This document shows, piece after piece, positions 37,363 through 57,122 of a stretch of DNA of 64,000 nt. The translations under genes and the position numbers were made by a program. Under the pieces are notes generated by a model. That model was not told the DNA's origin and searched no databases. It worked only from the letters and a program-made list of their open reading frames with translations. The stretch lies in assembly GCA_963767735.1 (NCBI GenBank), contig CAVYES010000004.1, forward strand, positions 64,001 through 128,000, given 5' to 3'. Position 1 is the stretch's first letter. Each line of letters opens with the position of its first letter. The DNA is from Candidatus Bathyarchaeota archaeon. GTDB taxonomy: Archaea; Thermoproteota; Bathyarchaeia; Bathyarchaeales; Bathycorpusculaceae.

Positions 37363-37680
37363 CTAAAGCCAGAGCGAGGGCTTTTGACGGGGTTCCGTCA
37401 CGTCGGTCACGTCGGCATCTATCATGTCCGCAGCTCGTTGTAAGACTTGCTTAGTTAGTTCCATGCATATGGTTGGCGTTTTTAAGTGAGCCACTGTCAT
37501 GTCAGCATTCGGTTGCTTTTTGTGTATGCTTACATGATTGTCAATGGCTTCAATCATTTCCTGCAAAGTTGGGGACATAGGGATTTTTTCACCGCATTCT
37601 GGACAACTTATGTATTTGATTTGGGGGTTTTCAGTGACGTTTTCTTTGGATTTTTCATTATTTTCTAAATTAGTTATCAT
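37363..37680 (-). CDS. C2H2-like zinc-finger microprotein, family copy A
   Basis: ISCPECGEKIPMSPTLQEMIEAIDNHVSIHKK...LTKQVL. Confidence 0.8.
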   Translation of the reverse strand: MITNLENNEKSKENVTENPQIKYISCPECGEKIPMSPTLQEMIEAIDNHVSIHKKQPNADMTVAHLKTPTICMELTKQVLQRAADMIDADVTDVTEPRQKPSLWL

Positions 37681-37953
37681 ACTCAGACGCCTTGTACGTA
37701 AGGTGACTAAATGAGAGGATAAACGCTTATAACATGCTCATATAGTGGAGCAGATTATCTTGACTGCTGTTTTTCCATTTCAGTTTCAGTGGTAGTGCAC
37801 TTATATGATGTATCTTGAGTCTGGAATCACAATAGTTTGCGTGTTTCATGCTAAAAAAAGACAACAGTTTTTAATCGTCATTTTATGGAAAAATGAGAAC
37901 TGCACAACAATTTTTGCTTTATGTTTGAACCATTAGAGAAATTTTAGGCGACT

Positions 37954-38253
37954 TCAAATTTGCTGAAGAATCTGATTCGCTAAAGCCAGACGAATATTAA
38001 TTGGTTTAGTATACTTCAGAAGAAGATTGGACTCTATTTCATCCTTATGAAGCTGGATATGATTCTCGATTGCCTCATTCATCTGTCTCAAAGTAGGTGT
38101 TATAAGAATTTCCTCACCACATTGAGGGCATCTAATCAATCCCTTTTTGACCTGACAACGATTTAGGCCAACCACCTTTGCCTTCAGTTTTCCTGATTTT
38201 TCACCATCTTCTTCAAAGATTCCTGTAGCCATAATCACCTTCTCCTTTTCCAC
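37954..38253 (-). CDS. C2H2-like zinc-finger microprotein, family copy B
   Basis: IRCPQCGEEILITPTLRQMNEAIENHIQLHKD...LANQIL. Confidence 0.8.
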   Translation of the reverse strand: MEKEKVIMATGIFEEDGEKSGKLKAKVVGLNRCQVKKGLIRCPQCGEEILITPTLRQMNEAIENHIQLHKDEIESNLLLKYTKPINIRLALANQILQQI

Positions 38254-38482
38254 TCAGCACACAAATTTTAACTCTGAATGTAATTCAAACTTAACGAAAC
38301 ACTTTATAAAAATTTATGACATGCCGGTATAGTCAAGAAAGCTTGTCTTTTTAAAGGAACAGTTGATGGGAATTTTATATTTTTTCGAAATAAAATATCC
38401 CGATTAAGTCTGGATTTGTAAATAACCATTTATAGTTCGGGTGCATGGTACGAGGAATACACTTTGAAAAGGTTGGATAGCA

Positions 38483-38722
38483 GTGGATGTTCATATTTCT
38501 GAGTCGAAATATAAATGCAAAGCTCGGTTACCCGTAATTAGATGTTCTTGCGGGGCTGAAATTTTGTTAGTTCCCAATGTTAAAAAGATGGGCGAAACAA
38601 TTGAAAATCATGCTGATTCGCACAAGCAAAAAGTAAAAGACCCTGAGGAAGCGGAAGCAGAAGCAGAAAGAGTACGTAATGATTTAATTGTAAAGATATT
38701 GGAAAAAGCATGTAATTCTTGA
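38483..38722 (+). CDS. C2H2-like zinc-finger microprotein, family copy C
   Basis: IRCSCGAEILLVPNVKKMGETIENHADSHKQ...LIVKIL. Confidence 0.8.
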   Translation: MDVHISESKYKCKARLPVIRCSCGAEILLVPNVKKMGETIENHADSHKQKVKDPEEAEAEAERVRNDLIVKILEKACNS

Positions 38723-38734
38723 TAGCTTATTAGC

Positions 38735-39307
38735 TTAAAAGTGGGAATTACCCAATGAACCTTCCATGATGTTTTGTTCAGCTATGTCTAACTGCAGAGA
38801 CAACCATTTTTTAAGAATTATTGAGAAATCAGGAGCGCCCTCATATATGATTAATTGGTTTCCCCTAAGGGCGTCAACTTGGAAAACCTTCGCAGTCTCT
38901 TTATATCTAAAAAATAGCATTTGCGCATGCATTGCTAAGACCTGAAAATCTGCCCACTGTTTACAACGCAAAATCACGGAAGGCTCACCTCGAACAACTG
39001 TTGGCGATACGGCAGGGGCTTCCTGAACCTGAGGCTCCTGTTCCTTCATCGAAGCTGGTAAGTCTTTTTTAGGTGAGTTCAGCAGGAAGCCAATTAGGCT
39101 TGTTACTTCTTTTTGCAGGTTATTTATTTTTTCATCAACCTCTTCCACCTTAACTTTTAATCCGTTCGTTGTGTTACCTATGATCTTGGCAACCGTCGCC
39201 AACTCTCCAGTCGACTGGTCCAAATTTTGTTCATGGATCTTTAGAACGTTAATTAAGAAATCAAAAGCCTTTACGGAATCATCTTTCGAATCTGGGTTCT
39301 CCACCAT
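38735..39307 (-). CDS. Hypothetical protein with N-terminal coiled coil
   Basis: 190-aa ORF; heptad region followed by a globular domain (CKQWADF...KVFQVDAL). Confidence 0.7.
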   Translation of the reverse strand: MVENPDSKDDSVKAFDFLINVLKIHEQNLDQSTGELATVAKIIGNTTNGLKVKVEEVDEKINNLQKEVTSLIGFLLNSPKKDLPASMKEQEPQVQEAPAVSPTVVRGEPSVILRCKQWADFQVLAMHAQMLFFRYKETAKVFQVDALRGNQLIIYEGAPDFSIILKKWLSLQLDIAEQNIMEGSLGNSHF

Positions 39308-39752
39308 ATCTTCCGTTTCCCAGATAAATCTTGGATAATTTGCTTTTTAAGGCGTATTTCGATGCTGGATTATTCTGTTTCCTGAAACCCCCTTCTCAAC
39401 TTCACAACAGAATCGCCGACGACTATCTACGTGGCTGAACATTGCTCAAGATGTGAATAAAAAGTTCGGGATAACAAGTGGCTCCTGCATTTAATATGGA
39501 AAAATCTCAAATCATGAACGGTAAAAACTGTGCGCGTGTGTGTTCCTAAATTCGTAATTAGTTGAGTCATGTGCCTCTCTTGGAGTGAGCAATGAAGAGA
39601 CAGAGGCTTTAGCACCAGGTTGAACGATATTTTTATAATAAGTTGCGATTTCAGATGGCTTTTTGTGTTATGCGTTGTATTTTAATTTGTGGTATGGAGC
39701 CCGTGCAGATTATTCATATATAGCGGGCGCCTTTTGTTCTCTGGTGTTACAA

Positions 39753-40109
39753 ATGAACTCAGAACAAATAAATAGTCTCTTTAAAGTAATTGATGAGATG
39801 GATTGTGAAAAGTTCGCTGCATTCTTAGATGAAAATGGTGAATTTAAGTTTGGGAACGCCTCAACTGTAAAAGGAAGAGCTGAAATAAAAAAGGCCGTTT
39901 CTCAGTTCTTCAATAGCATTCATGGATTGCAACATAACATTAAACAAATTTGGAGCGTTGACAGTTGTGTTATTGTAAACGGAGAAGTCACCTACACAAG
40001 GAAAAACAAAACACAAATCACTATTCCTTTCATGAACCTTTTAGAAATGAATAACGGTTTAATTAAAAATTATCAGATATTCATTGACATTAGTCCATTA
40101 TTTGCCTAG
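39753..40109 (+). CDS. SnoaL/NTF2-like protein
   Basis: Start ATG 39753; F.FGN...V.GR..I, GEVTYTR, I..YQIFID..P. Confidence 0.85.
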   Translation: MNSEQINSLFKVIDEMDCEKFAAFLDENGEFKFGNASTVKGRAEIKKAVSQFFNSIHGLQHNIKQIWSVDSCVIVNGEVTYTRKNKTQITIPFMNLLEMNNGLIKNYQIFIDISPLFA

Positions 40110-40146
40110 CGCGCGATTGTGTGAAAATGACTTACATGTTTTTAGA

Positions 40147-41043
40147 TTAGACAACGGCTTGTTTTCCACCTCTGGTGAGGAAGCGCCAGACTAAAAGAGC
40201 TTCTACAAGCAAGATTAAAGCAGCAATGCCAATGAAAGCTATGTTCACAGGAAGCCGATAACCGGACAAGTTTTCTATTGACAGCACTGCGGATGAGACA
40301 AACAAACTCGCTGCAACTGCAAACGGAACTCCGAACACACGCCAAGATTTGCCTTTCAACCTGAGCCAACCGCCAGCGTAAGTCACCACAATCGCAGCAA
40401 AAAGGCTCAAAACAGGGTAGAAGGCACCCGAAGACAGGAAATCTTTGGCCTGAATTGTAAAACTCCGGTTAAGGAATGAATACAGGATTAGCAAAGATAA
40501 CGAGCCCACGAAGAACCAGTTGTCAACAATCTGTCCGTTCAAAGCAGGTCCGTAGGTTCTCCGCCAAGGAACGGGTTTTGACTCTCGCAAATCTGGATCT
40601 GAGAGCTCGGTCAATTCTGCGGTATCTTCGTTTAGAAAATACACTCTGTCGGGAACTTTCTGATCTAGCAATTCAAGTTGGCATTCTTCACCCTTTTGTG
40701 TCGCAGCAAGAGCGTAACGGCCCCTTTTTACAAGTCTGGAAAATGGGAAGAGCCACTCGACTCCTCTGTCCTTTTCGGTTGTTAGAGCATCCAAAAAACT
40801 GTGAAGGAAAGCGCCTAGAGCAAGCCATTGATTAATAAAGAAAAGCGCAGCAAAAAATAATAGGTTATGGAAAAGCGAACGATGCCATTCTTCTTCTGTG
40901 AAGGTTTTTCGCCCGCCCAACAAGTACTCTCTATCAAGATCAGGTATTAAGGCGCCCACGGAGGCAAGAATAGCAAAATAAGGATTACCCGTTAACACTC
41001 CAGTAATCATAGCGCTAAAGAACACATGCGTTTGAAGATTCAA
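40147..41043 (-). CDS. YdjM-like membrane metal-dependent hydrolase
   Basis: TH, GALIPDLD, HRSLFHN, HSFLD, GVEWLFP. Confidence 0.85.
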   Translation of the reverse strand: MNLQTHVFFSAMITGVLTGNPYFAILASVGALIPDLDREYLLGGRKTFTEEEWHRSLFHNLLFFAALFFINQWLALGAFLHSFLDALTTEKDRGVEWLFPFSRLVKRGRYALAATQKGEECQLELLDQKVPDRVYFLNEDTAELTELSDPDLRESKPVPWRRTYGPALNGQIVDNWFFVGSLSLLILYSFLNRSFTIQAKDFLSSGAFYPVLSLFAAIVVTYAGGWLRLKGKSWRVFGVPFAVAASLFVSSAVLSIENLSGYRLPVNIAFIGIAALILLVEALLVWRFLTRGGKQAVV

Positions 41044-41369
41044 ACTCGGTCAACTAATAATAGCCTAAATTGAAATAAGAGGTTTACTCATGCGCCAATT
41101 CAAGTTTCTAACGATACTTCAAGAGTCGAGTTAAAAGATAAAATACGGCACATGAAATTTTGCTAGGGCAAAAGTGCACTAAAGCAGATTTACCTGTTGC
41201 TAACAAAAAAGCGGCTGATTAGGTTGGGTTTCGAGTCGCCTCTTCACGTTTACGTTAAAAAAGCCCAATTAGAATGAATATATTCTGCTTGACCAAGTTG
41301 TTACCCTGGTCCTTTTGTAATTTGTGGAAGTCTGTTTCCTGTTTACAGCACGTTGCCACCGACACATGA

Positions 41370-41669
41370 TTATTTGACATTGATGGTTTTTGTTTTACTT
41401 GTCACTATTAGCACCTGCTCAGCCAGATACTGCTCCAATAACTCAGGTGACAAAATATTTTCTGAGCTTTTACTTTCGGCCTCGTGTTCGGCTACGTGGT
41501 TTTTTATTGCTTGGTCCATGGCTTTCAAATCTGGAGTCACTAAAATTTCGGTGCCGCAACGACATTTAATGGCCGGCATGCTTTTTTCATGAGCAAAGGA
41601 TTGGCCGTTGTGCTCTTGCTCAGAGTTAAGATTAGCTTCTTGAACGCTTTTTTTGTCCATAACATTCAT
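41370..41669 (-). CDS. C2H2-like zinc-finger microprotein, family copy D
   Basis: IKCRCGTEILVTPDLKAMDQAIKNHVAEHEA...LAEQVL. Confidence 0.8.
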   Translation of the reverse strand: MNVMDKKSVQEANLNSEQEHNGQSFAHEKSMPAIKCRCGTEILVTPDLKAMDQAIKNHVAEHEAESKSSENILSPELLEQYLAEQVLIVTSKTKTINVK

Positions 41670-42023
41670 CCTAAAATGTCAACTTTTAATTTTGATAGAA
41701 TAAGCTAGGTTTTAGCTACCGCAGCAACTTATAAGAGTTTGTTGTAGGCTTGACACAGTCACAAACACGCCGTATTTGCTAATAATTCTCTCAATTTAAA
41801 AGGCTTTAAATTCATTTTTGTGTCTAAATGCACAGTTTTGTTCAGAAAAAGTGTAATTATTTGAATTAGGTAACAGCAAAATGCGCAAGGCTTATAAATA
41901 CTTTGACACTACTTTGAAGCAGGCAAGCTTGAGGTTTGAACTTCCCTATGGCGGGTGTTGCCCAGAAAGCCACCAGATACCCCAATAATGCCCGAATTAA
42001 AAATTGATGAATAGAGAGAAGGC

Positions 42024-42323
42024 ATGCGGATGAGACGATCAAAACTTGAAACGTATGTTGCTATCCTTAACGTGTTGGCGCATAGAGGTCCTTTGAAGCT
42101 AACTCACATCACATACAAAGCTAACGTCAACTGCAGCGTACTCAAAGATTTTATGGATTTTCTGGTTAAAAATGACCTAGTAGAAAAACGGTTAGTGAAA
42201 AGGAGCCATGCGGTTTTTGCAATCACGCAACGCGGCGTCAACGTGTTGAAGTACTTCCGAGAACTTACACAAGTATTGCCAATCGTGGAGGAAGCCCGAA
42301 GTCAAACAAGTAGAGCATCATAA
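42024..42323 (+). CDS. Winged-helix transcription regulator (archaeal HTH_45-like)
   Basis: RRSKLE.Y..IL, THITYKANVN, ITQRG. Confidence 0.88.
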   Translation: MRMRRSKLETYVAILNVLAHRGPLKLTHITYKANVNCSVLKDFMDFLVKNDLVEKRLVKRSHAVFAITQRGVNVLKYFRELTQVLPIVEEARSQTSRAS

Positions 42324-42459
42324 AATTACTGAATCGCTCGAATTGAAATCTATCTATTACTATAATGTGCATTAAAATGTTCTCCCTCTGGAATCGATAG
42401 TCAAGTGCACTCATTAACTTTTAATAAAAGATAAGTTGATGCACGCTTAACGCCTACGA

Positions 42460-42744
42460 TTACCTAAAGAATTTTTTTGGGCGTTTTTGGGGTTTGAGAA
42501 CAATCGGGGTTATGGTACTTTTGACGCCTTGAATCTTCATGATTTTCTTTTGCAAGACGTTTCGGAACTCCTCTATGCTCGAAGCTGAAACTATTGGGAC
42601 TATGTCAAATTCGCCTTTGACGTCATAGATTTCATCGATGTTTTCGAGTTTTGAGAGGGCGTCTATAACTTTGGCCTTCTAGGTTGGATCAACAAAGATG
42701 TTAACTGAGGCCTCAAATAGGTCATGGTTATTGTGGGTATCCAT
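42460..42744 (-). pseudogene. Lrp/AsnC ligand-binding domain gene interrupted by an in-frame TAG
   Basis: MDTHNNHDLFEASVNIFVDPT*KAKVIDALSKLENIDEIYDVKGEFDIV...KIQGVKSTIT; TAG at 42679-42681. Confidence 0.8.
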
Positions 42745-42950
42745 TTTGCTTCATCGCAAAGCCCTTAGCTCCCAGGCGGCTTTTGAGCTTTTTTGAGAAT
42801 TTAAACGCGCTAATTTGCAAAGCATACTAAACGAGCGTTGAGATTAAATCTAAGACTAATTTATGTTAGTTATGACAGTTACTTGATTTCAATATGTTTT
42901 TTCTTGCCTATCTTGGTCACGTTTTGAAGAGCTTTCGGTTGTTTGTCAAG

Positions 42951-43151
42951 CTAATTTATGTTTGAAGAATTAATCTTGCTTGCCACCGTTAAAACCTGCT
43001 CGGTTAAGAACTCCGCTAATACCTCAATTGTGTCCAAACCATCCCTCGCTTGCTTATGTTCTGTTACATGATTTTGTATAGCGATGCTCATCGCCTTCAA
43101 GTCAGGCAACACTAAGGTTTCAGAGCCACATAAACATCTGACAATAGGCAT
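42951..43151 (-). CDS. C2H2-like zinc-finger microprotein, family copy E
   Basis: MPIVRCLCGSETLVLPDLKAMSIAIQNHVTEHKQ...LTEQVL. Confidence 0.8.
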   Translation of the reverse strand: MPIVRCLCGSETLVLPDLKAMSIAIQNHVTEHKQARDGLDTIEVLAEFLTEQVLTVASKINSSNIN

Positions 43152-43271
43152 ACTTTTTTTGCTGCGGCGAACAAACTTTCATCACATGCTCTTTTTCGCG
43201 CGGCGCGCTAATAAATGTCGGGCAATAACAATTATACCAGACGAATCCCATGTTCTCTATGAGATTATTTT

Positions 43272-43673
43272 ATGTTGAAATATGCAGCTTCAAAAGAACA
43301 GAATATTTCAGAATTAAAAATCATGAAGATCATGAGCTCAGTCCCGCACGATAAGGGATTCCATTTTTTCACTGATCTGGACCGCAACACAGGCGAGACT
43401 GCTACTAGTTTAGTAACATTCGCTCAAAAACTCGAAAGAATAAATGCCGATTCCCTCAAGTTCCATCTTCAAAGAAAAGATTTTCAAAACTGGATAAAAA
43501 CCGCTGTGGGAGATGATGTATTGGCTGAAAGAATTAACCACATAAATATGCAGCTTCCTGTTGAAGATTTGAGGAATGAACTAGTTCAAACCGTGCAGAA
43601 CCGCATCTCTTATCTAAAACTTCTATATGGCGAATCAACCCCTTCACAAGGTGAATCGATCCGCTCAAAATAA
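43272..43673 (+). CDS. DUF5752-family protein
   Basis: FHFFT.....TG..A.SL..F, SLKFHLQRKDFQNWI...GD..LA. Confidence 0.8.
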   Translation: MLKYAASKEQNISELKIMKIMSSVPHDKGFHFFTDLDRNTGETATSLVTFAQKLERINADSLKFHLQRKDFQNWIKTAVGDDVLAERINHINMQLPVEDLRNELVQTVQNRISYLKLLYGESTPSQGESIRSK

Positions 43674-43914
43674 AATATACCACACTTAAGGATAAAATAC
43701 GGTTAATTATAAATCAAAGAGTCTCAGCGGCGCACCTGCCTTTTTTCGTACGCTTAGTTTTGATACGTTACATTTTATGAAATATACTTTATATGTTTTC
43801 TTTCCTATTGCTTGGCTTAAGGAAGAGGCACCGGAGAAGTGGGAAGGGGTCTCAACAAATTTTGCGTAGAAAGGAAAACGTGCAGATTAAAACAGGTGGA
43901 GAGTTAAATTTAGA

Positions 43915-44103
43915 ATGACCCAAAAAACTACAGAAGAAATTCGAACACTTCTAAAAAACGCCAAGCTTGATTTTGAGTCAGTAGAAAATAGAGCATTGAA
44001 CAATTATCTTCCAAAAATATTTCGCAGTTGTCCCTTTACAGATGATGTGTGCACAACAAAACAATGCTTAGAATGTGAAGTCTTCAATAGTATCCATAAA
44101 TGA
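43915..44103 (+). CDS. Small Cys-rich protein
   Basis: CPFTDDVCTTKQCLEC; GGAG RBS. Confidence 0.65.
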   Translation: MTQKTTEEIRTLLKNAKLDFESVENRALNNYLPKIFRSCPFTDDVCTTKQCLECEVFNSIHK

Positions 44104-44215
44104 GCAAACTTTCCATATTTGAACGCCCTTTATTTGAGCGAAGAATAAATTTTTATAAAATTACAAGTTTTCTTTGATAAGTGTCTATCAAGCACAATTT
44201 AACTCAATTTTAGAA

Positions 44216-44356
44216 TCATTTAAACTCGCATAAATGTTGTTGGGAAAGACGGCAGATAGACTGCAGCTTTAAAGCGAAATGCCAATGAGAAAAGGCCGAA
44301 ACGTTGTCACACTTCAGCAAAATTTCGCGGCCACATAAACATCTTACGGTAGGCAT
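44216..44356 (-). pseudogene. Decayed zinc-finger microprotein copy F
   Basis: MPTVRCLCGREILL matches copy E, then similarity stops and the H-x3-H pair is not at the family spacing; upstream leader is frameshifted. Confidence 0.65.
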
Positions 44357-44442
44357 CCTAGTTTTATTAGGGTCAAAGTTATCATTGCGGTCTGCGTCAA
44401 GTTTAAAGTTGATTCCTTTGCGATTTGTTTTTTCATGTCAAC

Positions 44443-44787
44443 TCAACCAGGTTTTTGATTTTGCCACAATTTTCTGGGGCTATAATTGTTTTTTTGGTTA
44501 AACATTTTCAAACGCTTCTCGACTTCCACTTTAATCTCAAAGTCTCTTTCTTTGATTAAAGCCTTAGATAAGAGGCGCTTAGCTAGTGGAACGCTTTCTT
44601 CTCCGAAAATCTTTCCAAATGTGGATCGCCCCTTAATTAAACCTTGAATTTGAGGTAACACGCAAATAAAATTCAATGGGTAATCCTTGGAAGTATCAGA
44701 ATCAACTACTACAAAATGGACCTCCGTTTTCTGATTTTCAATTGTTCTACCAATTTCTTTTTTTAAGAAGTATAGATTGGGTTTCAT
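44443..44787 (-). CDS. Hypothetical protein
   Basis: 114-aa ORF with AGGTG RBS. Confidence 0.7.
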   Translation of the reverse strand: MKPNLYFLKKEIGRTIENQKTEVHFVVVDSDTSKDYPLNFICVLPQIQGLIKGRSTFGKIFGEESVPLAKRLLSKALIKERDFEIKVEVEKRLKMFNQKNNYSPRKLWQNQKPG

Positions 44788-44849
44788 TCGGTTCGCACCT
44801 TTTAAAAACTGTTTGAAAAACTAATTAGTTTTAGTGATTTATTTTCTTG

Positions 44850-44868
44850 TTGACATTATTAATGTCAA
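44850..44868. promoter_or_regulatory. Perfect palindrome TTGACATTA-T-TAATGTCAA, candidate operator
   Basis: 9-bp arms, 63 nt upstream of the 44787 start. Confidence 0.5.
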
Positions 44869-45176
44869 AGGAAAAAAATGACTAATCAATCATTTAGGTA
44901 GAAATGTCAACTTGGACAGAACAAAAACCGAATTAAGACGTAAAAAAGCCCATTTGGCACATATTTTAATTAATAGATACGCTGCCTTGTCCCGATATTA
45001 TGTTTGATAGTAAATTCTTTTCTATTTTTTCCTTCCATTTCCTTTCTAAGGCTTAGGACTCTTGGCGCGCGCGAAACGCAAAATTAAGCTCATTTTTTCA
45101 GTTTTTCGCGTAAACGTTCGCACCGTTTTTTTTCGCACTCTGGATAACCTTCCTTTGTATGAATTAACTCCAAAAT

Positions 45177-45344
45177 CTATGCGGTCTTCAAATCCATCGA
45201 CTCACCCAAATATTCGCTTTCAAGCAGTTCTTTGAAGCTTAAATGAATAAAACCTATGTCTTCAAACTGTTCCTTCAACTTTGCCAAAATCTCTTCAGCA
45301 CTGATGCTGGTCTTGGCTAACTCTTTAACGAACAAAATCCCCAT
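45177..45344 (-). CDS. Possible small protein or gene remnant (55 aa)
   Basis: MGILFVKELAKTSISAEEILAKLKEQFEDIGFIHLSFKELLESEYLGESMDLKTA. Confidence 0.35.
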   Translation of the reverse strand: MGILFVKELAKTSISAEEILAKLKEQFEDIGFIHLSFKELLESEYLGESMDLKTA

Positions 45345-45600
45345 CTTCTACACTGAACAGTTCCCGCAACTGTTTCGGAACAATAACCTTACCCCCAGTA
45401 AAAACCCGAACCACAAACTCCTCCACGACAACCACCAACGACAAAAAACAATAAAAAGTACGTAAAAGTTACCAAATTACTCCGCCCAAACCAAAAAAAC
45501 CCAAAGCAACTTGAACAAAAAATGCAAAAATAGCCTATGGATGATAAGATTTTTAAGCTGTATAGCGGTTTTATACTAAAACTTTGGTACGAGCAGAAAC

Positions 45601-46180
45601 ATGCTGAAAAAGAAATTTGCTTTATTTTTGGTTGTTGTTTTTTGGTCTGTTCCATATTTTTTTCAGTATATCTTACTTCAAATTCAAACAATCAAATATA
45701 CTGGGGTGCTTGGGTAGGTGAAAATGACAGAATGCCCTTGTCAACAATACAAGCATTTGAGAATCAAGTAGGAAAAGGTATGTCTATATGGAATTGGATG
45801 CAATGGTGGACAGGACCAACAGACCAAGTTCAAGACCCGAATTTTAATTCTACTTGGATGGATGAATGCCGAAATGCAGGGATGATTCCTATGATAAGTT
45901 GGGGTCCCTTCTTCCATCTATATTGCAGGAGTGTATCAGGGGTATGACGATATTCTTAGCGGGAAATGGAACGCTTATTTAGATGCATGGGGAAATGCTT
46001 CAGCAGCATGGGGTCATCCATATTTTGTTCGATTCTATTGGGAATTTAACGCTCAATGGGTAAATGAATCTATGTCGTTGGAGTTTTGGTAGTTATTATT
46101 GTCGCTATATTAATTTATAAAAGGCCGCGGACGCGAAACCTAACTGCGAAAACCTTAAGCCCACTTTATTTTTTTAGCCC
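45601..46180 (+). pseudogene. GH26-like secreted glycoside hydrolase remnant
   Basis: Signal peptide from ATG 45601, frameshift in a T6 run, YWGAWVG...FENQVGK...IPMISW, second frameshift near 45910, GHPYFVRFYWEFN, then an abrupt junction to a TM/basic tail. Confidence 0.75.
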
Positions 46181-47508: not shown

Positions 47509-47712
47509 CTAAATTCTTTTCTCACTAAGTTTCAGTTTTTCAAGTTTCTTTTTATTAGCGTTTCTTCTATTAGCTATGAAAATGCCCCATTGTTTTTTAT
47601 TGTAGAGAGCTTGACATCGGTTACTATGAAAGAGCTTATTTTCATCATAAGTCTCAAAGACTATTCCGCAAGGACATTTTCTAATAATGATTGTGTCGGA
47701 TAACAGCGTCAA
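47509..47712 (-). CDS. Small Cys/His zinc-binding protein
   Basis: CPCGIVF......LFHSNRC and a basic tail. Confidence 0.6.
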   Translation of the reverse strand: MTLLSDTIIIRKCPCGIVFETYDENKLFHSNRCQALYNKKQWGIFIANRRNANKKKLEKLKLSEKRI

Positions 47713-49271: not shown

Positions 49272-49307
49272 CTCTTTTTCTCCAGTGTCAATTTGTTTTG
49301 TAGTTAC

Positions 49308-49682
49308 TTACAGTCCACTTAGTTCATCCAAAATGTTCCTAACAGATATCAAGCCCACTAGTTTCCCGCTTGCGGTTATCACGGGCAAATGCCGAACCTT
49401 AGCGGATTTGATGATGTTTTTTGCTTCATCGAAAGTGGAATCTTCGTTAACTGTAAAAGGGTTTTTAGTCATGATTTTTTCTATCGGCGCATCTAAAGGC
49501 ACGTTTTGCGCCACGACTCTTATAGCATCCCTCTCGGTGAAAAGACCTATGCATTTCTGTTCATCGTCGACAACAACAATGCACCCAACGTGTCTTTTGA
49601 AAAGAAGCTCAATTGCCTCCTTTATGGGCACGTTTCCATATATAGTAACTACGTCTTTTAACATTAGGTCACGAGTCATCAT
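49308..49682 (-). CDS. CBS-domain pair protein
   Basis: GLFTERD, IMTK, VRHLPV, LVGLISVR. Confidence 0.92.
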   Translation of the reverse strand: MMTRDLMLKDVVTIYGNVPIKEAIELLFKRHVGCIVVVDDEQKCIGLFTERDAIRVVAQNVPLDAPIEKIMTKNPFTVNEDSTFDEAKNIIKSAKVRHLPVITASGKLVGLISVRNILDELSGL

Positions 49683-49790
49683 ATAGTTTGATCTCCAGTT
49701 TTAATCCGAGTTTCCGAATTAATAAATGATGTGAATTATGTTTAAGCTTTGAATTTTTAGCTGTCATATTTGAATCTTAATTTCTAAATT

Positions 49791-50838
49791 TTACTTTTTT
49801 GACTGATATTTTTTTATCTCTTCCAAGTTTAAGCGAGCTTGGAGGTAAGCTAAGGTGGCTTCAGCGCCTCTGTTTTGGTTTAAGCCTTGGGGTGTTATGC
49901 CGTCGCAGCAGCTTCCGTTTTCTGGATCATACAATATTAGACCTTTCAGGTTTCTACCAAAAAACCATTCAAAGGCATCGTAGGCTGCTTGGAGGTAAGC
50001 TTCTTCGCCGGTGTTTCTGAAAGCAACTATTGCTGCTTCTGTGGTGCAGGATGCTTCAACGGATTGTTGATCGTAGATTGCTCGGGCAGATCCTTTTCTA
50101 TACCAGCCACGATTTCCTATGGGTACGAATATATTGTTTATTGTTTGGGTACTTATTAGAAATTTCATAGATTTGGTTGCTATTTGGAGGTACCGATTTT
50201 TTCCAGTAGCTTCGTAGGCTAAGAAAAGCGAATGAGGCATTCTCGCATTGGAGTAGGTTAGATATGATTCAAACCATTCCCAATCCTTAGATGATTCCAA
50301 TTCAAATTGCTTGGTCAGCTGATCAGCAAGGGCAACAATGTTTAGGTTTACATTTTGATCGTTCTGGATAAGCTTTTTGGTAATTAAACAATCCCATAAT
50401 TGAGTACGCTTTTGCTCTCGGTGAGGTAAAACTTGAAGTCCATTTGAAAACTTTGTCAAAAATCTCTTTAGACATGAGTTTTGTTTCATCGGATAATTTT
50501 GAGTTCAAGCAGTATCCGCATGCCCAAAGTGTCCGGCCCATGCAATCCTCGGAGCCTGTTTCATCCAAAAGTTTGCGGTCATAGCCGAGGTAGTTGTGCA
50601 TTTTGCCGTCAGATTTCTGCATATAGAGTAACAAACATAGGTAGGTGTCAATTAGTTTCTTGACGCTTGTGTCATTGAACAGCATGAGGTAATTTGTACA
50701 TGCAATTAGAGCTCTTGCGTTGTCATCTGTTGTGTATCCTTCTTTTTTATTAGGTGTTGAGTATTTCGAGTGCTGGAGTATTCCTACGTCGTCTGTCAGT
50801 GTTCTGACAAAATCTAGTTTTATGGGTAGTATTGTCAA
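49791..50838 (-). pseudogene. Six-hairpin glycosidase-like partner of GT4, split by a +1 frameshift
   Basis: GAGGT RBS and TTG 50838; LTDDVGILQHS, YTTDDNARAL, EDCMGR; extra base at about 50364 (YP|NDQN); then WFE..LTYSNAR, DQQSVEA, NQNRGAEATL. Confidence 0.8.
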
Positions 50839-52012
50839 CTTGGGGAACCTCTTTATTGTCAATTATTGTTTTAATTAGGTTTACATATTTTTTTGCTACG
50901 TTTTTCCAAAGGAAGCGTCTACTGTATTTGTAAGCTTTCTTTTGAACCCCATTGCGGAAATTTTCGTCTAAGAGCCTGGTTAGACCTTCTGCAATTGATG
51001 CGGGATCTTCAAATCTGCATAGTATTCCTCTATCGTTAGCCAAGACCTCTTGAGCGTGGTAGTAAGGAGTAGAAACTACAGCTTTTCCGGCGCCAAGGGC
51101 ATAGATAAGGGTGCCACTGCTGATTTGGTTAGGGGAAACGTAAGGGGTTAAGTAAATATCGGTTGCTTGAAGAAAATTTTTTAGTTCACTTTTGGTAACA
51201 AATCTGTTTGTGAATCTGACGTGTTCTTCTAAATCGAGTTCACTAACAAGCTCTGTAAGTCTATTTCGGTATTTTTCGCCCTCATTTTTTCTGACTTCAG
51301 GGTGCGTTTCGCCTATAATTAGATAAATTATTTGAGGCTCTTTCTTAATAACTTCTGGCAGAGCCTGAATAGCGTATTCGATTCCTTTGCAGCTGCTTAT
51401 TAATCCGAAAGTAGAAGCGACCAAACGTCCTTTTAGGCCTAGTGATTCCTTGATTGATTTGTTGTTTTTGTACTCTATGTTTGGACAACCATGGGGGATA
51501 ACAACGCATTTCTTGCAAGATATTCCTTGGTTTTTTAGGATGTTGATTGCGGCATGAGCAATTACAACTATTGATTCGCTTCCTTCAACTATGTATTTTA
51601 GAATTTCGATTGCTTTTTGATCAAAATTCGGTTGCACGGTGTGAAGGGTAGTAATTACTGGTTTTTTGACATTTTCTAAGAAGATTTTAATGTTTGATCC
51701 GTAGTCGCCTCCGTAGAGGCCGAACTCATGTTGAATAACTAATGCCTGAATATTTGATGAGTTTACGTATTCGGCTGCCTTAACGTAATCTTCAATTTTG
51801 TCTCGACTAATTTTTCGTTTAACTCGCCCAGCGTAATTATAAATCGCGCCTTTTTCATTTATCGCAATTACGGAAGACTTAAGCTCAGTTAGCTCACCGG
51901 AAGCATCAATTAAGTCTTTTGTGAAGTTTGCAATACCGCATTCTCTGGGGGGATAAGTGCTCAAATACCCTACGTGAGTTGGGCGACTATCCAAAAATTG
52001 TTTCTTGATCAT
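50750..52012 (-). CDS. Glycosyltransferase family 4
   Basis: STYPPRECGIANFT, QHEFGLYGG, IPHG, KGIEY, GETHP, SSGTL.YA. Confidence 0.92.
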   Translation of the reverse strand: MIKKQFLDSRPTHVGYLSTYPPRECGIANFTKDLIDASGELTELKSSVIAINEKGAIYNYAGRVKRKISRDKIEDYVKAAEYVNSSNIQALVIQHEFGLYGGDYGSNIKIFLENVKKPVITTLHTVQPNFDQKAIEILKYIVEGSESIVVIAHAAINILKNQGISCKKCVVIPHGCPNIEYKNNKSIKESLGLKGRLVASTFGLISSCKGIEYAIQALPEVIKKEPQIIYLIIGETHPEVRKNEGEKYRNRLTELVSELDLEEHVRFTNRFVTKSELKNFLQATDIYLTPYVSPNQISSGTLIYALGAGKAVVSTPYYHAQEVLANDRGILCRFEDPASIAEGLTRLLDENFRNGVQKKAYKYSRRFLWKNVAKKYVNLIKTIIDNKEVPQVDNTTHKTRFCQNTDRRRRNTPALEILNT

Positions 52013-52446
52013 TTTTTAAATAACCTCTCATTCGAATTTTTATTTATCGCACAAATCCTCTATTTAGCAATTCATGAGAAACAAGTATTCCCAAGATCAC
52101 ATCGGCCTTCTTTTTCACCAAAGAAGTTAACTGGAAGAATTTCTGGTTGAGGCTTTGAAGTATTGTTTACCTCATTTTATAGTTACCTTCCGACCTTAAT
52201 GTCTATTTCGTCTTTTAATAGCCATTTTTTATGTAAAGAGATTCTAAATATTACTTCGGTCTAATGATCGAGGTTGTCGATTTTTCCAGTTTTTTACAGG
52301 AAAGAAGAAACGGACATGCGAAATGGTGAAAGATCGTCAGGTCTGTCTTATGACGTCACGTTTGTGACTGTGGTGACCCAATCACTGAACTTAATATTTT
52401 ATCTTAACTTATTATAATCGGTTAATCTTTACGAAAGTGTGCCTGT

Positions 52447-52680
52447 TTGAAGAGAAAACTGAGAATTCAATGCCCTTGCGGCTATGTATTTGATGTTTTA
52501 AGCACTGAGAAAGATGCATTAGTCCGAATAAGGTTTCATTTTGAACGTTTTCACAGGGATTTTCTTCCTTTCGGAATTACTGACACCGAAGCATTATCCT
52601 TGATAAAGAATGCACGAGTAGGCGGAAAACAAAAAGGTTCGTCAAGGCACTTCAAGCAAAATTCGCCTATAAGCCAATAA
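52447..52680 (+). CDS. DUF1059-like small zinc-binding protein
   Basis: CPCG-x18-H-x4-H: IQCPCGYVFDVLSTEKDALVRIRFHFERFH. Confidence 0.7.
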   Translation: MKRKLRIQCPCGYVFDVLSTEKDALVRIRFHFERFHRDFLPFGITDTEALSLIKNARVGGKQKGSSRHFKQNSPISQ

Positions 52681-52794
52681 GTAATAAGTATCCTGCAAAG
52701 AAACAGGATTCAAAGAAAGTTGCTTGTTTTCTGGAAGAGGATTATGGATTTTGGAAAAAGCAAGCAAACCACTTCATCGATATTCTCAAAAACT

Positions 52795-53178
52795 TTAGCG
52801 TTCTTGTTGTATTATACGTAGCCTTTCTCGAACCGTAGATATGAGCTCTTCAGCTTTAACTGGTTTAACTAGAAAATCGTCTGCTTCATAATCGGCAGCT
52901 TTTTTTCCAGCCTCTTCAGTGGAGAAGCCGGTGACAATAATTTTAATTGCTTTAGAGTTTTTTGGTATTTTAAGGAGAAGCTCTGTTCCGTCCATGTCTG
53001 GGAGCTTGACGTCAACTATGTACGCATTGAACTTTGATTTTTTTATTTTCTTGAGGGCATCTTTGCCTGTCTTAGCAGTCTCAACTATGTATCCTTCTTT
53101 TTCTAAAACACTTTTAAAAACCCTCAAAATATCCGAATCGTCATCTACTACAAGAATTCGATTTATTTTCCAGTTCAT
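52795..53178 (-). CDS. Stand-alone response regulator receiver domain
   Basis: ILVVDDD, DVKLPDMDG, TG, KP. Confidence 0.92.
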   Translation of the reverse strand: MNWKINRILVVDDDSDILRVFKSVLEKEGYIVETAKTGKDALKKIKKSKFNAYIVDVKLPDMDGTELLLKIPKNSKAIKIIVTGFSTEEAGKKAADYEADDFLVKPVKAEELISTVRERLRIIQQER

Positions 53179-53570
53179 TTAACTTCTCCAATCAACGTTA
53201 ATAAATTCGAAAAAAGTTCCGATGAGTGTTGGCTTTCCCGAACTCTGAGAACAATTTCATAAATCATATTTGTCATAATATCAAGAATGTAACTTAAAAA
53301 TATATGTCAGAGGATAGAAACTCGATCTTTTTAACAGTTTTTTCATTCCTTTTGCGAGAATTGTAGTTAACTGACATAAAGTTAATACTTGTTACATCGA
53401 TAATTAAGGAAAAAACAGGAAGTTTGAGAAAACAGTAAATGTTTCAGACATGACAATTTATTTTTGATTTAAAAAAGATTTGCCAATTGATTGAATCAAG
53501 CAATGGAAAATAGCGTAAGGTTTATAAAAAAGCACTATTGCATAAAATGAGCGTCAATTTTCAGGTTTGA

Positions 53571-56500
53571 TCATATGCTACCTGGTTTTCGTTTTAAACG
53601 TCTGATGGCTATAACTGTGTAGACTAAAATGATTTCGGGGACGGTTATGCCGACAGCGAACACAGGTCCCAACGATAAAGTTAGCGCTGTTTTTGGTGCT
53701 TCGAAATTTATTGTTACTTGGTGTGTGCTGAAGCTTGTTGTATACCATACATAGAAGTTTTTGACGTTTTGTGTGTAGCCTTGGTTTGGAGCCTGCACAC
53801 CATCTATGTATACGACTGGGCTTGTCCCGTAGGATATTGCTGTTTTTGGAATAGTCATGTTGCTAAAACCTACTGTTCCGCTTGGCCCTGTTATTGTAAA
53901 GGACACTGTGGCTGTTTTGTGCGATTGGTTTGATGTGATTGTGGCGTTGGAGATCTGTGAGCTGGTTACGTTTCCGCTTATCGCAAGGTCAACCGTTGCG
54001 TCACTACCTGTCGTAGTTGGCACAGTTGTTGCAAACGGGCTTGGAGTGGGTGAGGGCTTCGGAGTAGGGGGAGTTGTGGGTTTAGGTGTGGGCGTTGGTG
54101 CAGGGGTCGGAGTGGTCGTTGCTGAGGGTGGTGGCGTCGGTGTGGGTGCAAACGTTGCCGAAATGGTATTTGAAGCCTGAACATTGTTGAATGTGTAGGA
54201 GCTAACAGCGCCAGCTGAACTTCCATTCACCGAGACATCAACAATGTTATAGCCAGTGTTCGATGTAATAGTGAAAGTTTGATTGTCACCATATTTAACG
54301 CTTACAGACCCATCTGGGCTGATAGAACCGCCGGCTCCAGCAGAAGCAGTAATATTGAACGTGTTAATCGTAAAGTTGGCAGTAATCGTGTGAGCAGCCT
54401 GGACATCAGTGAAGGTGTAAGATGAAATGGTGCCCACAGAAACGTTATCCGCAAAAACATCGGCAATTTGGTAGCCAGTACTCGCTGTTATAGTGAAGCC
54501 TTGACTGCCGCCATAGTTGACAGAAACACTTCCAGTCGGACTGATAGCTCCATTAGCTCCAGCAGAAGCGGAAATAGTGGGATTCACCTTAAATGAGTTG
54601 CTCGTTCCAGTATGAGTGCCATCAGTAGCCGTAATAGTAATGCCTAAACTTGCAGCAGTTATCGTAACCGAAGTCGCCCCAACACCGCCGACAAAAGCAC
54701 TCACAGTATCGGGACTAATAGATCCAGAAGAAACCGTCAAAGACGGCAGGCCACTATAACCTGTAACAGTGTTTCCCGAAGTGTCCTCAGCCCTAACCGT
54801 TATGCTGAAAGCAGAACCAGCAGTCTGAGTCGCAACAGTATTAAAGACAAAGTGATCCAGAGCAGCCGGATTAACCGTTAAACCCGTTGTGTAAGCCGCG
54901 GAAGCATAAGTGCCCGTAACAGTCCAGTAACCAGCAGTAGCAGATGCGTAAACGTTGCTGGTCCAAGAACCCCCCGCGCTTGAGCTTATGTTCCAATTTG
55001 TTGAAGAAGTCACATCCCAAGAGTTACCATATAGGTCAGAAGCCGTAGCCGAGAAGGTCTTAGATACCCCAGCCGTAACCGATGAATCAGCAGGAGAAAT
55101 CACAACATTAGCGACCGCAGCAGCATGATTCACCGTTATGCCCGTTTCTGAGCCAGCAGTCGAGCCGGTAGCTTTGTCCGTAGCCGTAATCGACTGAGAA
55201 CCAGCAGTCTCCAATGTAACACTAAAAGAGCCAACACCGCCCGTGAGAACCATACTCGCAAGCAAAACCGCTTGGCTGTCACTTGAAGTAATCTTAACCG
55301 TACCCGCATAACCCGAAGCTGTATTGTTATATGCATCCTCAGCTGTAACAGTGACGGAGAAAGCAATACCAGCTACTTGAGAAGTCCCACTTGAAACCAC
55401 CAAGTGCGTAGCAACACCGGGATCAATCGTAACCGAGTTACTTGTTCCAGTATGAGTGCCATCAGTAGCCGTAATAGCAACGCCTGAACCCGCGCCAGCC
55501 ATCGTAATGATACCAGTCCAAACGCCACTTGAGAAAGCGCTTGTGATAGTTGGACTAATAGTTCCAGTTGAAACACTCAAAGTTGGCGTACCAGTGTAGC
55601 TGGTAACAGTGTTTCCGTTTGAAGCTTTAGCCGTTATCGTTATACTGAAAGCAGAACCAGCAGTCTGTGGACTGCTAACAGCATTAAAGACGAAATGGTC
55701 AAGAGCGACCACATTAACTGTGAATGAATTGCTCGTTCCGGACTTTCCAGAACCAGAGGTACTAATAGTTATTCCTGAACCAGATGCAGAAAGCGTCACA
55801 TAACCCATCCAAACGCCAAGTGAGAATGTTCCAGTGCTTGTTGGACTTATAGTTCCTGAAGACACCGTTAAAGTGTTAGTTCCAGTATAGCTCGTAACTG
55901 TATTGCCACTCGAATCTTCAGCAGTAAAGGTTACGATGAAAGCAGTACCCACAGTCTGTGTGCCAATATTGCTAAAAACAAAATGATCAAGAGCACCCGA
56001 ATTAACATTGAACGAATTGCTTGTTCCAGACTTTGAAGAACCAGATGTACCAATAGTAATTCCCGAACCAGATGCGGATAGTGATACTGAACCAGTCCAA
56101 ACACCAGCCTTAAATGCAGAAGTGCTTGTTGGGCTTATCGTTCCAGAAGACACGGTTAAAGTGTTAGTTCCAGTATAACTCGTCACTGTGTCACCGTTGG
56201 AGTCTTTAGCCGTTATCGTTACGCTGAAAGCTTTACCTACAGTTTGTGGACTGCTAACAGCATTAAAGACGAAGTGGTCAAGAGGCGCTGCATTTACAGT
56301 GAGCGAGTTGCTTTTTCCAGATTTGCCTCCGCCACTGGTTGAGATTGAAATGCCTGTTCCCGCTTGAGAAAGTGTTACTTGACCTGTCCAGACTCCTGAT
56401 ACAAATGCGGTTGTGCTTGTTGGGCTTATCGTTCCAGAAGACACGGTTAAGGTGTTGGTTCCAGTGTAGCTGGTAACAGTGTTGTCGCTTGAATCTTTAG

Positions 56501-56663
56501 CTGTTATGGTAAGGCTAAAAGCGGAACCTGCAGTCTGTGGACTACTAATAGTGCTGAAGACAAATTGAGACAGACTGCTTGCCGCTTTGACTTGCATACC
56601 CGTGTATGCGAAAATTGATAACGAAACTAGAAAAGCGACTATTAAGATTAGAATTTTCTTCAT
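53571..56663 (-). CDS. Large Ser/Thr-rich surface protein with tandem Ig-like repeats
   Basis: Signal peptide; about 98-aa repeats LDHFVF...QTAG.AF..T.TA.D..GNTVTSYTG; two InlB-B-like repeats; Pro/Thr linker; WYTTSFSTH domain; TM with VPE and basic tail. Confidence 0.88.
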   Translation of the reverse strand: MKKILILIVAFLVSLSIFAYTGMQVKAASSLSQFVFSTISSPQTAGSAFSLTITAKDSSDNTVTSYTGTNTLTVSSGTISPTSTTAFVSGVWTGQVTLSQAGTGISISTSGGGKSGKSNSLTVNAAPLDHFVFNAVSSPQTVGKAFSVTITAKDSNGDTVTSYTGTNTLTVSSGTISPTSTSAFKAGVWTGSVSLSASGSGITIGTSGSSKSGTSNSFNVNSGALDHFVFSNIGTQTVGTAFIVTFTAEDSSGNTVTSYTGTNTLTVSSGTISPTSTGTFSLGVWMGYVTLSASGSGITISTSGSGKSGTSNSFTVNVVALDHFVFNAVSSPQTAGSAFSITITAKASNGNTVTSYTGTPTLSVSTGTISPTITSAFSSGVWTGIITMAGAGSGVAITATDGTHTGTSNSVTIDPGVATHLVVSSGTSQVAGIAFSVTVTAEDAYNNTASGYAGTVKITSSDSQAVLLASMVLTGGVGSFSVTLETAGSQSITATDKATGSTAGSETGITVNHAAAVANVVISPADSSVTAGVSKTFSATASDLYGNSWDVTSSTNWNISSSAGGSWTSNVYASATAGYWTVTGTYASAAYTTGLTVNPAALDHFVFNTVATQTAGSAFSITVRAEDTSGNTVTGYSGLPSLTVSSGSISPDTVSAFVGGVGATSVTITAASLGITITATDGTHTGTSNSFKVNPTISASAGANGAISPTGSVSVNYGGSQGFTITASTGYQIADVFADNVSVGTISSYTFTDVQAAHTITANFTINTFNITASAGAGGSISPDGSVSVKYGDNQTFTITSNTGYNIVDVSVNGSSAGAVSSYTFNNVQASNTISATFAPTPTPPPSATTTPTPAPTPTPKPTTPPTPKPSPTPSPFATTVPTTTGSDATVDLAISGNVTSSQISNATITSNQSHKTATVSFTITGPSGTVGFSNMTIPKTAISYGTSPVVYIDGVQAPNQGYTQNVKNFYVWYTTSFSTHQVTINFEAPKTALTLSLGPVFAVGITVPEIILVYTVIAIRRLKRKPGSI

Positions 56664-56936
56664 GTTTCTTTCATTCTAATGTTTTTTGTTAACTTTTTTA
56701 AGCGATATAAGCTAAAGCTAATCGAAAACTGTTGACTTAACCATGCAGAATCAAGACTGCGAGCAATTTGTTTGCCTAAGTCCAGAAATGCTTGAAATCA
56801 GAAGTCTAAGTTGAGTTTGTCAAAGATTAGCCGTTAAGTTCACAAAGGTAATAGTAACCAAACTAGTTCTTACATATTTGCCTTGATTTATTTTGTAGTT
56901 GCTGCTTTTCCATGACTTCTTCTGTTAAGTTTTGTC

Positions 56937-57122
56937 TTATTGTGCAGGTTCGTCGAAGTTAGCTTCTATAACGCAATTTATTTGTTTTAGGTCGGTCATC
57001 GGCAAAATTTTGGTTCCACATTCTCGTTCAATCGCCACTTAATATCCATTGGAGCAGGCCACGAAAACCTGTACATTGTTCACCGGATTAACTTTCACGC
57101 CTTTAGGATCTTGCTTTCTCAT
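56937..57122 (-). pseudogene. Decayed zinc-finger microprotein copy G
   Basis: After an in-frame TAA: VAIERECGTKILPMTDLKQINCVIEANFDEP aligns to IKCRCGTEILVTPDLKAMDQAIKNHVAEH, with three metal ligands lost. Confidence 0.55.

Follow-up and report, generated by a model that had tools for sequence, protein, structure and literature searches.

Five genes in a 64,000-nucleotide stretch of Candidatus Bathyarchaeota DNA (contig CAVYES010000004.1, positions 64,001 to 128,000 of the forward strand; the whole stretch is termed the window) encode very small proteins in which two cysteines and two histidines make up a single candidate zinc finger. The family formed by these finger proteins is real and large, it has been found so far in Bathyarchaeia only, and it appears to be undescribed in the libraries and literature searched. 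Judged by their sequences, the five copies are genuine, expressed-type genes for stand-alone, putatively metal-binding microproteins that are restricted to Bathyarchaeia. The reading preferred here, which is given a probability of roughly 0.4, is that the finger proteins serve as zinc-dependent co-regulators that work with Sso10a-like winged-helix DNA binders and are controlled via a conserved promoter-proximal element. Such a regulatory role is newly suggested because an Sso10a-like winged-helix neighbour recurs beside the finger genes, an element next to their promoters is conserved and a complex prediction gave weak support. The five intact copies are as follows.

37363–37680, minus strand: copy A, 105 amino acids (aa), with a CPECG knuckle (C-x2-C) and a long acidic C-terminal tail; family hidden Markov model (HMM) E 2.6e-37.
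37954–38253, minus strand: copy B, 99 aa if counted from the first GTG (the database entry has 92 aa), with a CPQCG knuckle.
38483–38722, plus strand: copy C, 79 aa, with a CSCG knuckle and an EAEAEAE linker joining both helices.
41370–41669, minus strand: copy D1, 99 aa (96 aa from the second ATG, which is the database form).
42951–43151, minus strand: copy D2, 66 aa, a minimal form without N-terminal extension.

The initial annotation had listed these genes as five open reading frames (ORFs) of 66–105 aa on both strands, and all five stand at the coordinates and on the strands it gave. Copy D1 consists of a basic N-terminal extension (predicted to be disordered), the finger and then a helix, in that order; copy D2 has in-frame stops 9 codons upstream; copies B and C are divergent and lie 229 bp apart; and relatives of copy A from other samples are 70–82% identical to it. 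Alignment of the five copies (23–35% pairwise identity against the first copy) left Cys, Cys, Gly, Pro, Met, Ile, Asn, His, His, Leu and Leu invariant and gave the consensus I/V-R/K-C-x(1-2)-C-G-x-E-x-L/P...P-x-L/V-x2-M-x2-x-I-x-N-H-x3-H, followed by a C-terminal L-x2-Q/K-V/I-L; the proposed spacer of 19 residues from the second Cys to the first His holds in this alignment. When an HMM built from the five copies was run against all 1914 six-frame segments of the window, the intact copies were recovered at E 3.8e-29 to 2.6e-37, and the next segment after these and two decayed copies scored E 0.42.

A word-index search with the five-copy alignment returned 340 proteins at E ≤ 0.001 among 683 candidates, and an exhaustive search of 1.84 billion representatives returned 609 clusters (50% identity) at E ≤ 0.001, 245 of them at E ≤ 1e-10. 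The best 150 of the 609 clusters contain short stand-alone proteins of 64–188 aa; longer fused forms (238–2000 aa) were sought and none was found, which is weak evidence. Among the 120 homologues listed of the 340 found, none carries a precomputed Pfam domain and all are named 'hypothetical protein' at source, except two named 'RpoP' and one named 'thiamine monophosphate kinase'. The candidate ligands are conserved in these homologues, since the pattern C-x1-2-C...H-x3-4-H is present in 119 of the 120 (the exception, P0027, has Asn for the first His); 21 of the 119 fit with other spacings, through an extra upstream Cys or an H-H doublet, with the ligands in the same alignment columns. The pattern with a spacer of exactly 19 residues was found in 141 of 144 further representatives (the misses being P0215, P0230 and P0251, the last of which is N-terminally different), with a C-x-C knuckle in 117 and a C-x2-C knuckle in 23. 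Four old subfamilies are apparent in the homologue alignment, each with its own database homologues.

Subfamily A: CPECGEKI.
Subfamily B: CPxCGEEILITP.
Subfamily C: CSCGAEILLVP plus the EAEAEAE linker.
Subfamily D: CxCGSEILVVPDLKAMNRAIKNHVAEHK.

The window holds one A, one B, one C and two D copies together with one decayed D-type copy; most of the paralogy is therefore ancient, as the window copies fall into old subfamilies that each have homologues of their own in the databases. The family is under purifying selection; with this and the conserved ligands, none of the results that had been named beforehand as speaking against the family was obtained. Using the Nei–Gojobori method (NG86) on the core domain of copies from the fetched loci (see below) and the window, the median ratio of non-synonymous to synonymous divergence (dN/dS) was 0.266 over 1415 pairs with 0.05 < dS < 1.5 (interquartile range, IQR, 0.218–0.337; 95% of pairs below 0.5) and 0.289 over 44 disjoint pairs (range 0.073–0.755). 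Copies D1 and D2 gave 0.18–0.28 against the nearest locus copies, while for A, B and C distant comparisons alone were available, and their values of 0.39–0.70 at dS > 0.8 are little informative.

Genomic context was sampled by scanning two D-type peptide patterns over one genome per prokaryotic species, which gave 88 confirmed matches, 80 of them kept, and 79 distinct loci. All 79 are titled Candidatus Bathyarchaeota or Bathyarchaeia; a hand count of contig prefixes traces them to 43 assemblies, one of which (prefix PLYI01) has the maximum of 7 loci. Atlas look-alikes fall into clusters in which Bathyarchaeota is the commonest phylum. The idea of a lineage-expanded family is thus upheld by the 609 clusters and by the origin of every locus. 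Two or more copies occur in 15 of the 79 loci, with a maximum of five in L016 (fetched stretches of at most 20 kb), and copies of C type are often found close to D-type ones elsewhere (12 best matches to C). The window, with six copies within 7 kb, is at the high end compared with the other loci, yet not unique.

The sixth of these copies is decayed, as is a further one elsewhere in the window.

44216–44437, minus strand: decayed D-type copy; five-copy HMM E 5.3e-5 (44219–44437), also aligned by tblastn.
56866–57038, minus strand: decayed copy; five-copy HMM E 0.004 (56940–57038) and 0.99, tblastn E 0.001–0.005.

The first relic retains the N-terminal extension and the domain start M-P-T-V-R-C-L-C-G-R-E-I-L-L, after which an insertion of 11 residues follows; one His is kept and the second is replaced by Phe, a stop stands right behind helix 1, and the ATG ahead of it is in a different frame from the domain. 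In the second relic the first Cys has become Arg and N-H has become A-N, there is an in-frame stop, and a remnant of helix 2 (L-T-E-E-V-M-E-K) lies in another frame; it is too degenerate for assignment to a subfamily. An independent HMM of 147 mostly foreign homologues found the two relics at E 2.6e-6 and 7e-4, respectively, together with a colinear, frame-shifted C-terminal piece of the second at 56866–56958 (minus strand, E 0.082), the best reversed segment in a decoy control scoring E 0.44. Two decayed copies had been claimed and both HMMs find them, the homologous part of the second being 56866–57038 and not 56937–57122 as first given. As for the 'ongoing birth and death' of copies that was read from them, the relics bear out birth and death, and 'ongoing' birth has to be qualified, the copies being members of old subfamilies.

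No characterised family had been recognised in the finger proteins, and the curated libraries agree. Neither Pfam (window copies and 147 members) nor NCBIfam gave a significant match to the finger copies, and nothing was found in PADLOC or PHROGs at E ≤ 0.001 (best E 0.028 and 0.004, respectively). The zf-C2H2 family was not matched at E ≤ 1 by the window copies or at E ≤ 0.01 by any of the 147 members; the nearest C2H2-type Pfam entry was zf-C2H2_FBX41, at E 0.4 for one copy. Literature searches on small zinc-finger and winged-helix proteins of Bathyarchaeota/Bathyarchaeia returned no description of the family.

Structure prediction offers a view of what these proteins may look like. An AlphaFold2 model of copy D2 (66 aa; 147-sequence alignment) reached a mean predicted local distance difference test (pLDDT) of 87 and a predicted template modelling score of 0.72; in it, strands 3–5 and 11–13 bracket Cys6 and Cys8, a helix spanning residues 18–35 bears His28 and His32, and a second helix spans residues 40–63. 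The model of copy D1 has the same core (strands 33–35 and 41–43, helices 48–66 and 75–97), preceded by residues 1–26 at pLDDT below 50. In the AlphaFold models the finger helix begins about 10 residues ahead of the first His, and the predicted fold is a metal site of C2H2 type, made of a beta-hairpin and a helix, with a longer linker and an added helix. From the ligand pattern we infer that zinc is bound: the hairpin would supply two Cys in a knuckle and the long helix two His spaced by one helical turn, and these four most likely hold one zinc ion in a site resembling a stretched C2H2 beta-beta-alpha finger, with the second long helix packing back on the first. Searching the PDB by sequence with the family profile yielded nothing better than E 4.8. 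Foldseek with the D2 model found nothing at E ≤ 0.001 in the PDB or in BFVD, where 12 and 141 matches, respectively, stood at E ≤ 10; these nulls are weak evidence of fold novelty because small folds are hard for Foldseek.

The N-termini had been described as variable, and so they are; the extension that many members carry is a basic tail, predicted to be disordered. Median isoelectric points are 9.7 for the extension and 5.8 for the core (5.1–6.1 in the window cores). In 91 of 100 C-x-C copies the frame stays open for at least 25 codons ahead of the first Cys, and M-x-K-K-S-I-Q-E-I-N-F is a recurrent peptide of the extension; an explanation of the QEINF stretch as promoter and not coding sequence was rejected on the strength of this open frame and of conservation at the peptide level. 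The fifth residue before the first Cys is Met in 62 of the 100 C-x-C copies and Leu in 22, and some finger genes, e.g. D2, begin exactly at that Met. It is possible that long and short forms arise from alternative starts.

The one family that recurs beside the finger genes is represented in the window by the following gene, beside which lies a conserved element.

42024–42323, plus strand: Sso10a-like winged-helix protein, divergent from copy D1; Pfam HTH_45.
41739–41764, minus strand: conserved 26-nt element, a candidate operator, directly upstream of the TATA-like box of copy D1.

The winged-helix protein matches PF14947 (HTH_45) at E 3.8e-14 and 52.9 bits (cut-off 25.5), as does a locus homologue at 55 bits, and its profile finds the structures of Sso10a (1r7j) and Sso10a-2 (4hw0) at E 2.2e-6; on NCBIfam Sso10a_fam it scores 48.1 bits, under the cut-off of 60. 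When 1915 ORFs of the fetched loci and the window were clustered, the winged-helix cluster (proteins of about 100 aa) had 46 members in 32 loci, lying within 2 kb of a finger gene in 31 of the 32. Any other neighbour family was near a finger gene in at most nine loci; cluster 7 proved to be an antisense ORF of the winged-helix gene, and the other recurrent neighbours, diverse and each rare, include response regulator-PAS proteins, FilR1-type and TrmB regulators, MscL and ABC-2 permeases. Among the 92 C-x-C copies are 35 with a winged-helix gene no more than 1 kb away, upstream and divergent in 18, upstream on the same strand in 6, downstream on the opposite strand in 6 and downstream on the same strand in 5, so that the strands are opposite in 24 pairs and the same in 11.

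Binding between the two proteins was examined by predicting a complex from the winged-helix alignment and residues 28–99 of copy D1 (the finger core). The pair scored 0.57, against 0.00 for the best of three controls, with contact agreement of at least 93% between runs and a partner pLDDT of at least 69; the verdict was weak support. Of 157 solved complexes, 116 reach the mark used, as do 2 of 215 mismatched pairs; passing scores of 0.60 or less belong to only 18 of the 157 solved complexes and to both of those mismatches. Taken with the conserved gene pairing, the modelled complex modestly raises the odds of binding and does no more than that.

The element reads TTGTGAyTGTGcCGnGCCTACtACAA and is followed at once by a TATA-like box, about 55–60 nt past which stand a Shine–Dalgarno-like AGGA/GGAG and the ATG of the long form. 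The window has a single match to its 21-nt core, at 41744–41764 (minus strand) with 0 mismatches, and none of 100 shuffles contained one. The strict element has one site in each of 21 loci out of the 79; 20 of the sites share a corresponding position close upstream of the gene that was matched, and the one in L003 is placed differently. With seven mismatches allowed, 37 of 100 C-x-C copies have the element upstream, at a median of 181 nt ahead of the first Cys codon (IQR 177–185), compared with 13 of 2000 random 350-nt windows from the same loci; 18 of these 37 belong to the 37 copies that have a winged-helix neighbour and 19 to the 63 that do not. Archaeal regulators usually act at elements abutting the TFB recognition element (BRE) and TATA box. 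We infer that the neighbouring winged-helix protein may bind the 26-nt element.

The intergenic region between winged-helix and finger genes is of near-constant length, and an alignment of 17 distinct loci contains conserved blocks, among them a TATA/BRE-like TTATAAGCTTT block that faces the winged-helix gene. As separate observations, a TATATCTGCATG-TTATG block stands near the start of the winged-helix gene in this alignment, and further blocks, one of them partly palindromic (TTGTTTAATTCAAGCAA), lie upstream of the winged-helix genes, both at 41860–42030 and in loci L001–L063. Non-coding conservation between the two genes is unusually high across species.

The proposed mechanism would join these parts as follows. 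The acidic finger-plus-helix core would be a protein-interaction module that works with the small Sso10a-like winged-helix DNA binders, the finger protein binding its neighbour and acting as its co-regulator or anti-regulator, and the finger genes would themselves be under tight control via the conserved element that abuts their own TATA-like box.

Several points weigh against this co-regulator reading. No winged-helix gene lies within 1 kb of 57 of the 92 C-x-C copies, and none stands as an immediate partner beside the window's copies A, B, C and D2; the pairing, if real, is therefore not obligatory or acts in trans. The divergent layout fits 'regulator and its target gene' as well as it fits 'two partners'. 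Context was sampled via the D-type patterns only, by which the neighbourhoods of A, B and C are barely covered. By the calibration of the complex prediction itself, a pass of the kind obtained is more often wrong than right unless the prior is high, and the placing of the ligands is taken from the strands and helices of the models.

The main rival is that the finger proteins are autonomous nucleic-acid-binding regulators, whose finger helix and basic tail bind DNA or RNA, the winged-helix gene merely regulating them or being regulated. This is unlikely, although it is the alternative to be taken most seriously. The basic N-terminal extension (median pI 9.7), the modelled hairpin-and-helix fold and the conserved intergenic region shared by divergent winged-helix and finger genes all speak for it, and there are precedents in the accounts of AFV1p06, a single finger that binds zinc and DNA (PMC3541406), and of Brz of Halobacterium (PMC2253796). 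Its difficulty lies in a core that is acidic to neutral (median pI 5.8), in copy D2 and other short forms that lack the basic tail altogether, in a single finger where there is no tandem array, and in PDB and BFVD searches that returned no sequence or fold match to DNA-binding fingers.

A redox or metal sensor, or a buffer, whose site binds and releases metal upon oxidation or limitation and which has no fixed partner, is improbable. The Cys2His2 set is near-invariant, the unusual one-residue C-x-C spacing predominates (117 of 144 representatives) and there are many paralogues per genome, all of which would suit such a function; C-x-C zinc centres act as redox switches elsewhere, e.g. in Hsp33. 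However, one site per 66–105 aa makes a poor buffer, the conserved second helix and a conserved surface point to a macromolecular partner, and metal transporters and redox enzymes are not associated among the recurrent neighbours.

It is highly improbable that winged-helix and finger genes make up selfish or defence two-gene modules, be they toxin–antitoxin-like or remnants of mobile elements, that multiply and decay in the genome. Multiple dispersed copies, some of them decayed, a small winged-helix partner gene and highly conserved non-coding sequence between copies of different genomes are what one might look for in such modules. Against them stand the absence of any PADLOC or PHROGs match at E ≤ 0.001, a score of 13.3–14.5 bits for the MqsA-type antitoxin TIGR03830 (cut-off 61.8), a pair that is mostly divergent and not an operon (24 of 35 on opposite strands), ordinary chromosomal genes all around, and subfamilies that are old and under purifying selection. 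For the 37–45 kb region, descent from a mobile element was considered and set aside, as a scan of 39 large ORFs gave no integrase- or transposase-type Pfam match; a tRNA scan of the window found 0 genes and Rfam 0 matches.

Distant kinship with the RIP-type zinc finger of the eukaryotic RPA-interacting protein (RPA_interact_C), with action on single-strand-DNA-binding proteins and not on transcription, has very little to commend it. In its favour is a recurrent sub-threshold likeness to PF14768 over the finger and helix 1, seen in four of the five window copies (E 0.0017–0.0083, 17.1–19.3 bits) and in 29 of 147 members at E ≤ 0.01 (best E 8.5e-5). Against it, these matches never reach the gathering score of 25 bits, the other 118 members have no match at E ≤ 0.01, the likeness may reflect Cys/His spacing and helix composition alone, and no replication or repair genes recur nearby.

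One further gene had been likened to the finger family and to DUF1059.

52447–52680, plus strand: a separate small Cys2His2 family member, C-P-C-G-Y...x19...H-F-x2-F-H...L-P-F-G-I-T.

The spacing reported for it, C-x-C-x19-H-x4-H, is correct, while the likeness to DUF1059 is not sustained, there being no Pfam match. Indeed, DUF1059 (PF06348) was not matched at E ≤ 1 by this protein or by any finger copy, and the sole trace of that domain was an Atlas lead at 0.87 to a cluster with DUF1059 in 13% of its members. Compared with the finger family, the protein scored E 1.7 with the five-copy HMM and was absent at E < 5 with the 147-sequence HMM; hhalign gave 4.7% for the single sequence and 3.9% profile against profile, though the ligands are in register. 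It has 19 relatives, and C-P-C-G-Y, H-F-x2-F-H and L-P-F-G-I-T are invariant in all 18 aligned proteins (the window protein and 17 of the 19 relatives). On these comparisons it belongs to a second, smaller family with an apparently analogous ligand layout, which is not demonstrably related to the finger family. The gene adjoins a stand-alone receiver-domain gene (52795–53178).

Two other short ORFs have Cys motifs and no Pfam match. The first, at 47509–47712 (minus strand, 67 aa), contains C-P-C-G, and its alignment with the finger family is limited to I-R-K-C-P-C-G (hhalign probability 5%); the second, at 43915–44103 (plus strand, 62 aa), contains C-x6-C-x2-C. A DUF5752 protein (43272–43673, plus strand, E 5e-10) is encoded between copy D2 and the decayed copy at 44216, and relatives of it occur in eight fetched loci, some fused to a flavodoxin-like domain. 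Elsewhere the window looks like ordinary chromosome, with genes for cobalamin and flavin biosynthesis, two ammonium transporters, ABC transporters and glycosyltransferases. The two ammonium-transporter genes are in tandem at 19355–22182 (minus strand; Pfam Ammonium_transp, E about 1e-118 to 1e-120). In a protein of 1030 aa encoded at 53571–56663 (minus strand; local GC content up to 0.48) the N-terminus resembles a signal peptide, a unit of about 95 aa (...HFVFNAVSSPQTAGSAFSITITAKD...) is repeated many times in tandem, and there are a linker rich in Pro and Thr and a membrane anchor at the C-terminus; the protein had no Pfam match at E ≤ 1e-5 and is probably a surface or S-layer-type protein. 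In the minus-strand region 49791–52012, the ORFs 49791–50489 (232 aa) and 50323–50862 (179 aa) share about 170 nt that they read in different frames, and the latter also overlaps the glycosyltransferase gene 50750–52012; the cause may be a frameshift in one gene or ORF calls that overlap.

For Bathyarchaeia, an abundant and uncultured group, very little of gene regulation has been described. The finger family provides parts with which a regulatory module could be tested, in that a lineage-restricted, multi-copy family with a clear metal-site signature and a confidently predicted fold comes with a recurrent DNA-binding neighbour and a conserved cis element, and the proteins are small enough for direct biochemistry and nuclear magnetic resonance. 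According to one survey, zinc-finger-like matches occur in many archaeal families that lack annotation, and the 19 Bathyarchaeota genomes covered there have no widespread lineage-specific module of protein families (PMC9258230). Sso10a proteins are presented in one account as small dimeric DNA binders that have been discussed as transcription factors and as chromatin architects (PMC4941522); literature searches on zinc-finger and winged-helix proteins of Bathyarchaeota/Bathyarchaeia found no zinc-finger partner of Sso10a-type proteins.

Among very small archaeal zinc-finger proteins, Brz of Halobacterium is described as a small zinc-finger regulator (PMC2253796), and the C(P)XCG zinc-finger micro-proteins of Haloferax volcanii as a group of many paralogues, some with regulatory phenotypes (PMC11241148, PMC6562870). 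By these accounts the finger family resembles them in being very small, stand-alone and archaeal, in its C(P)XCG-type knuckle and in its many paralogues, whereas C(P)XCG micro-proteins have at least two motifs (four Cys), as they are defined (PMC11241148), and the finger proteins have one knuckle plus H-x3-H on a helix, which places them outside the two-motif rule. The only sequence likeness to the C(P)XCG/Brz group is a weak Brz-ribbon match of copy A (E 0.034), and the haloarchaeal hosts belong to a different phylum from Bathyarchaeia.

Zinc-binding anti-sigma (ZAS) factors are small helical proteins with a Cys/His zinc site that bind the transcription factor encoded next to them, and some release it on oxidation. 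They are bacterial, their motif is H-x3-C-x2-C and their partners are sigma factors, so that any likeness to the finger family would be one of functional analogy only. A stronger form of the co-regulator reading, distinctly unlikely as matters stand, is a multi-copy two-part switch that is specific to Bathyarchaeia and phylum-wide, in which a zinc- or redox-sensitive microprotein turns Sso10a-like DNA binding on and off at a conserved operator. If true, it would amount to an archaeal counterpart of the zinc-dependent anti-sigma factors, with many paralogous pairs per genome and built on a stretched C2H2-like finger.

The closest precedent for a small single-finger protein with extensions comes from an archaeal virus, whose AFV1p06 is described as a C2H2-type finger (PMC3541406). 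Like classical C2H2 fingers of the TFIIIA type, the finger family is predicted to carry its Cys pair on a beta-hairpin and H-x3-H on a helix; it departs from them in a spacer of 19 residues against about 12, and hence from the spacing C-x2-4-C-x12-H-x3-5-H, in a knuckle that is mostly C-x-C instead of C-x2-4-C, and in an obligatory second long helix and an acidic core. The finger family counts as a new sequence family whose domain is of a known kind but unusual in its C-x-C knuckle, its 19-residue spacer and its added helix, and it would bring the C-x-C/19-residue form into the catalogue of prokaryotic C2H2-like fingers.

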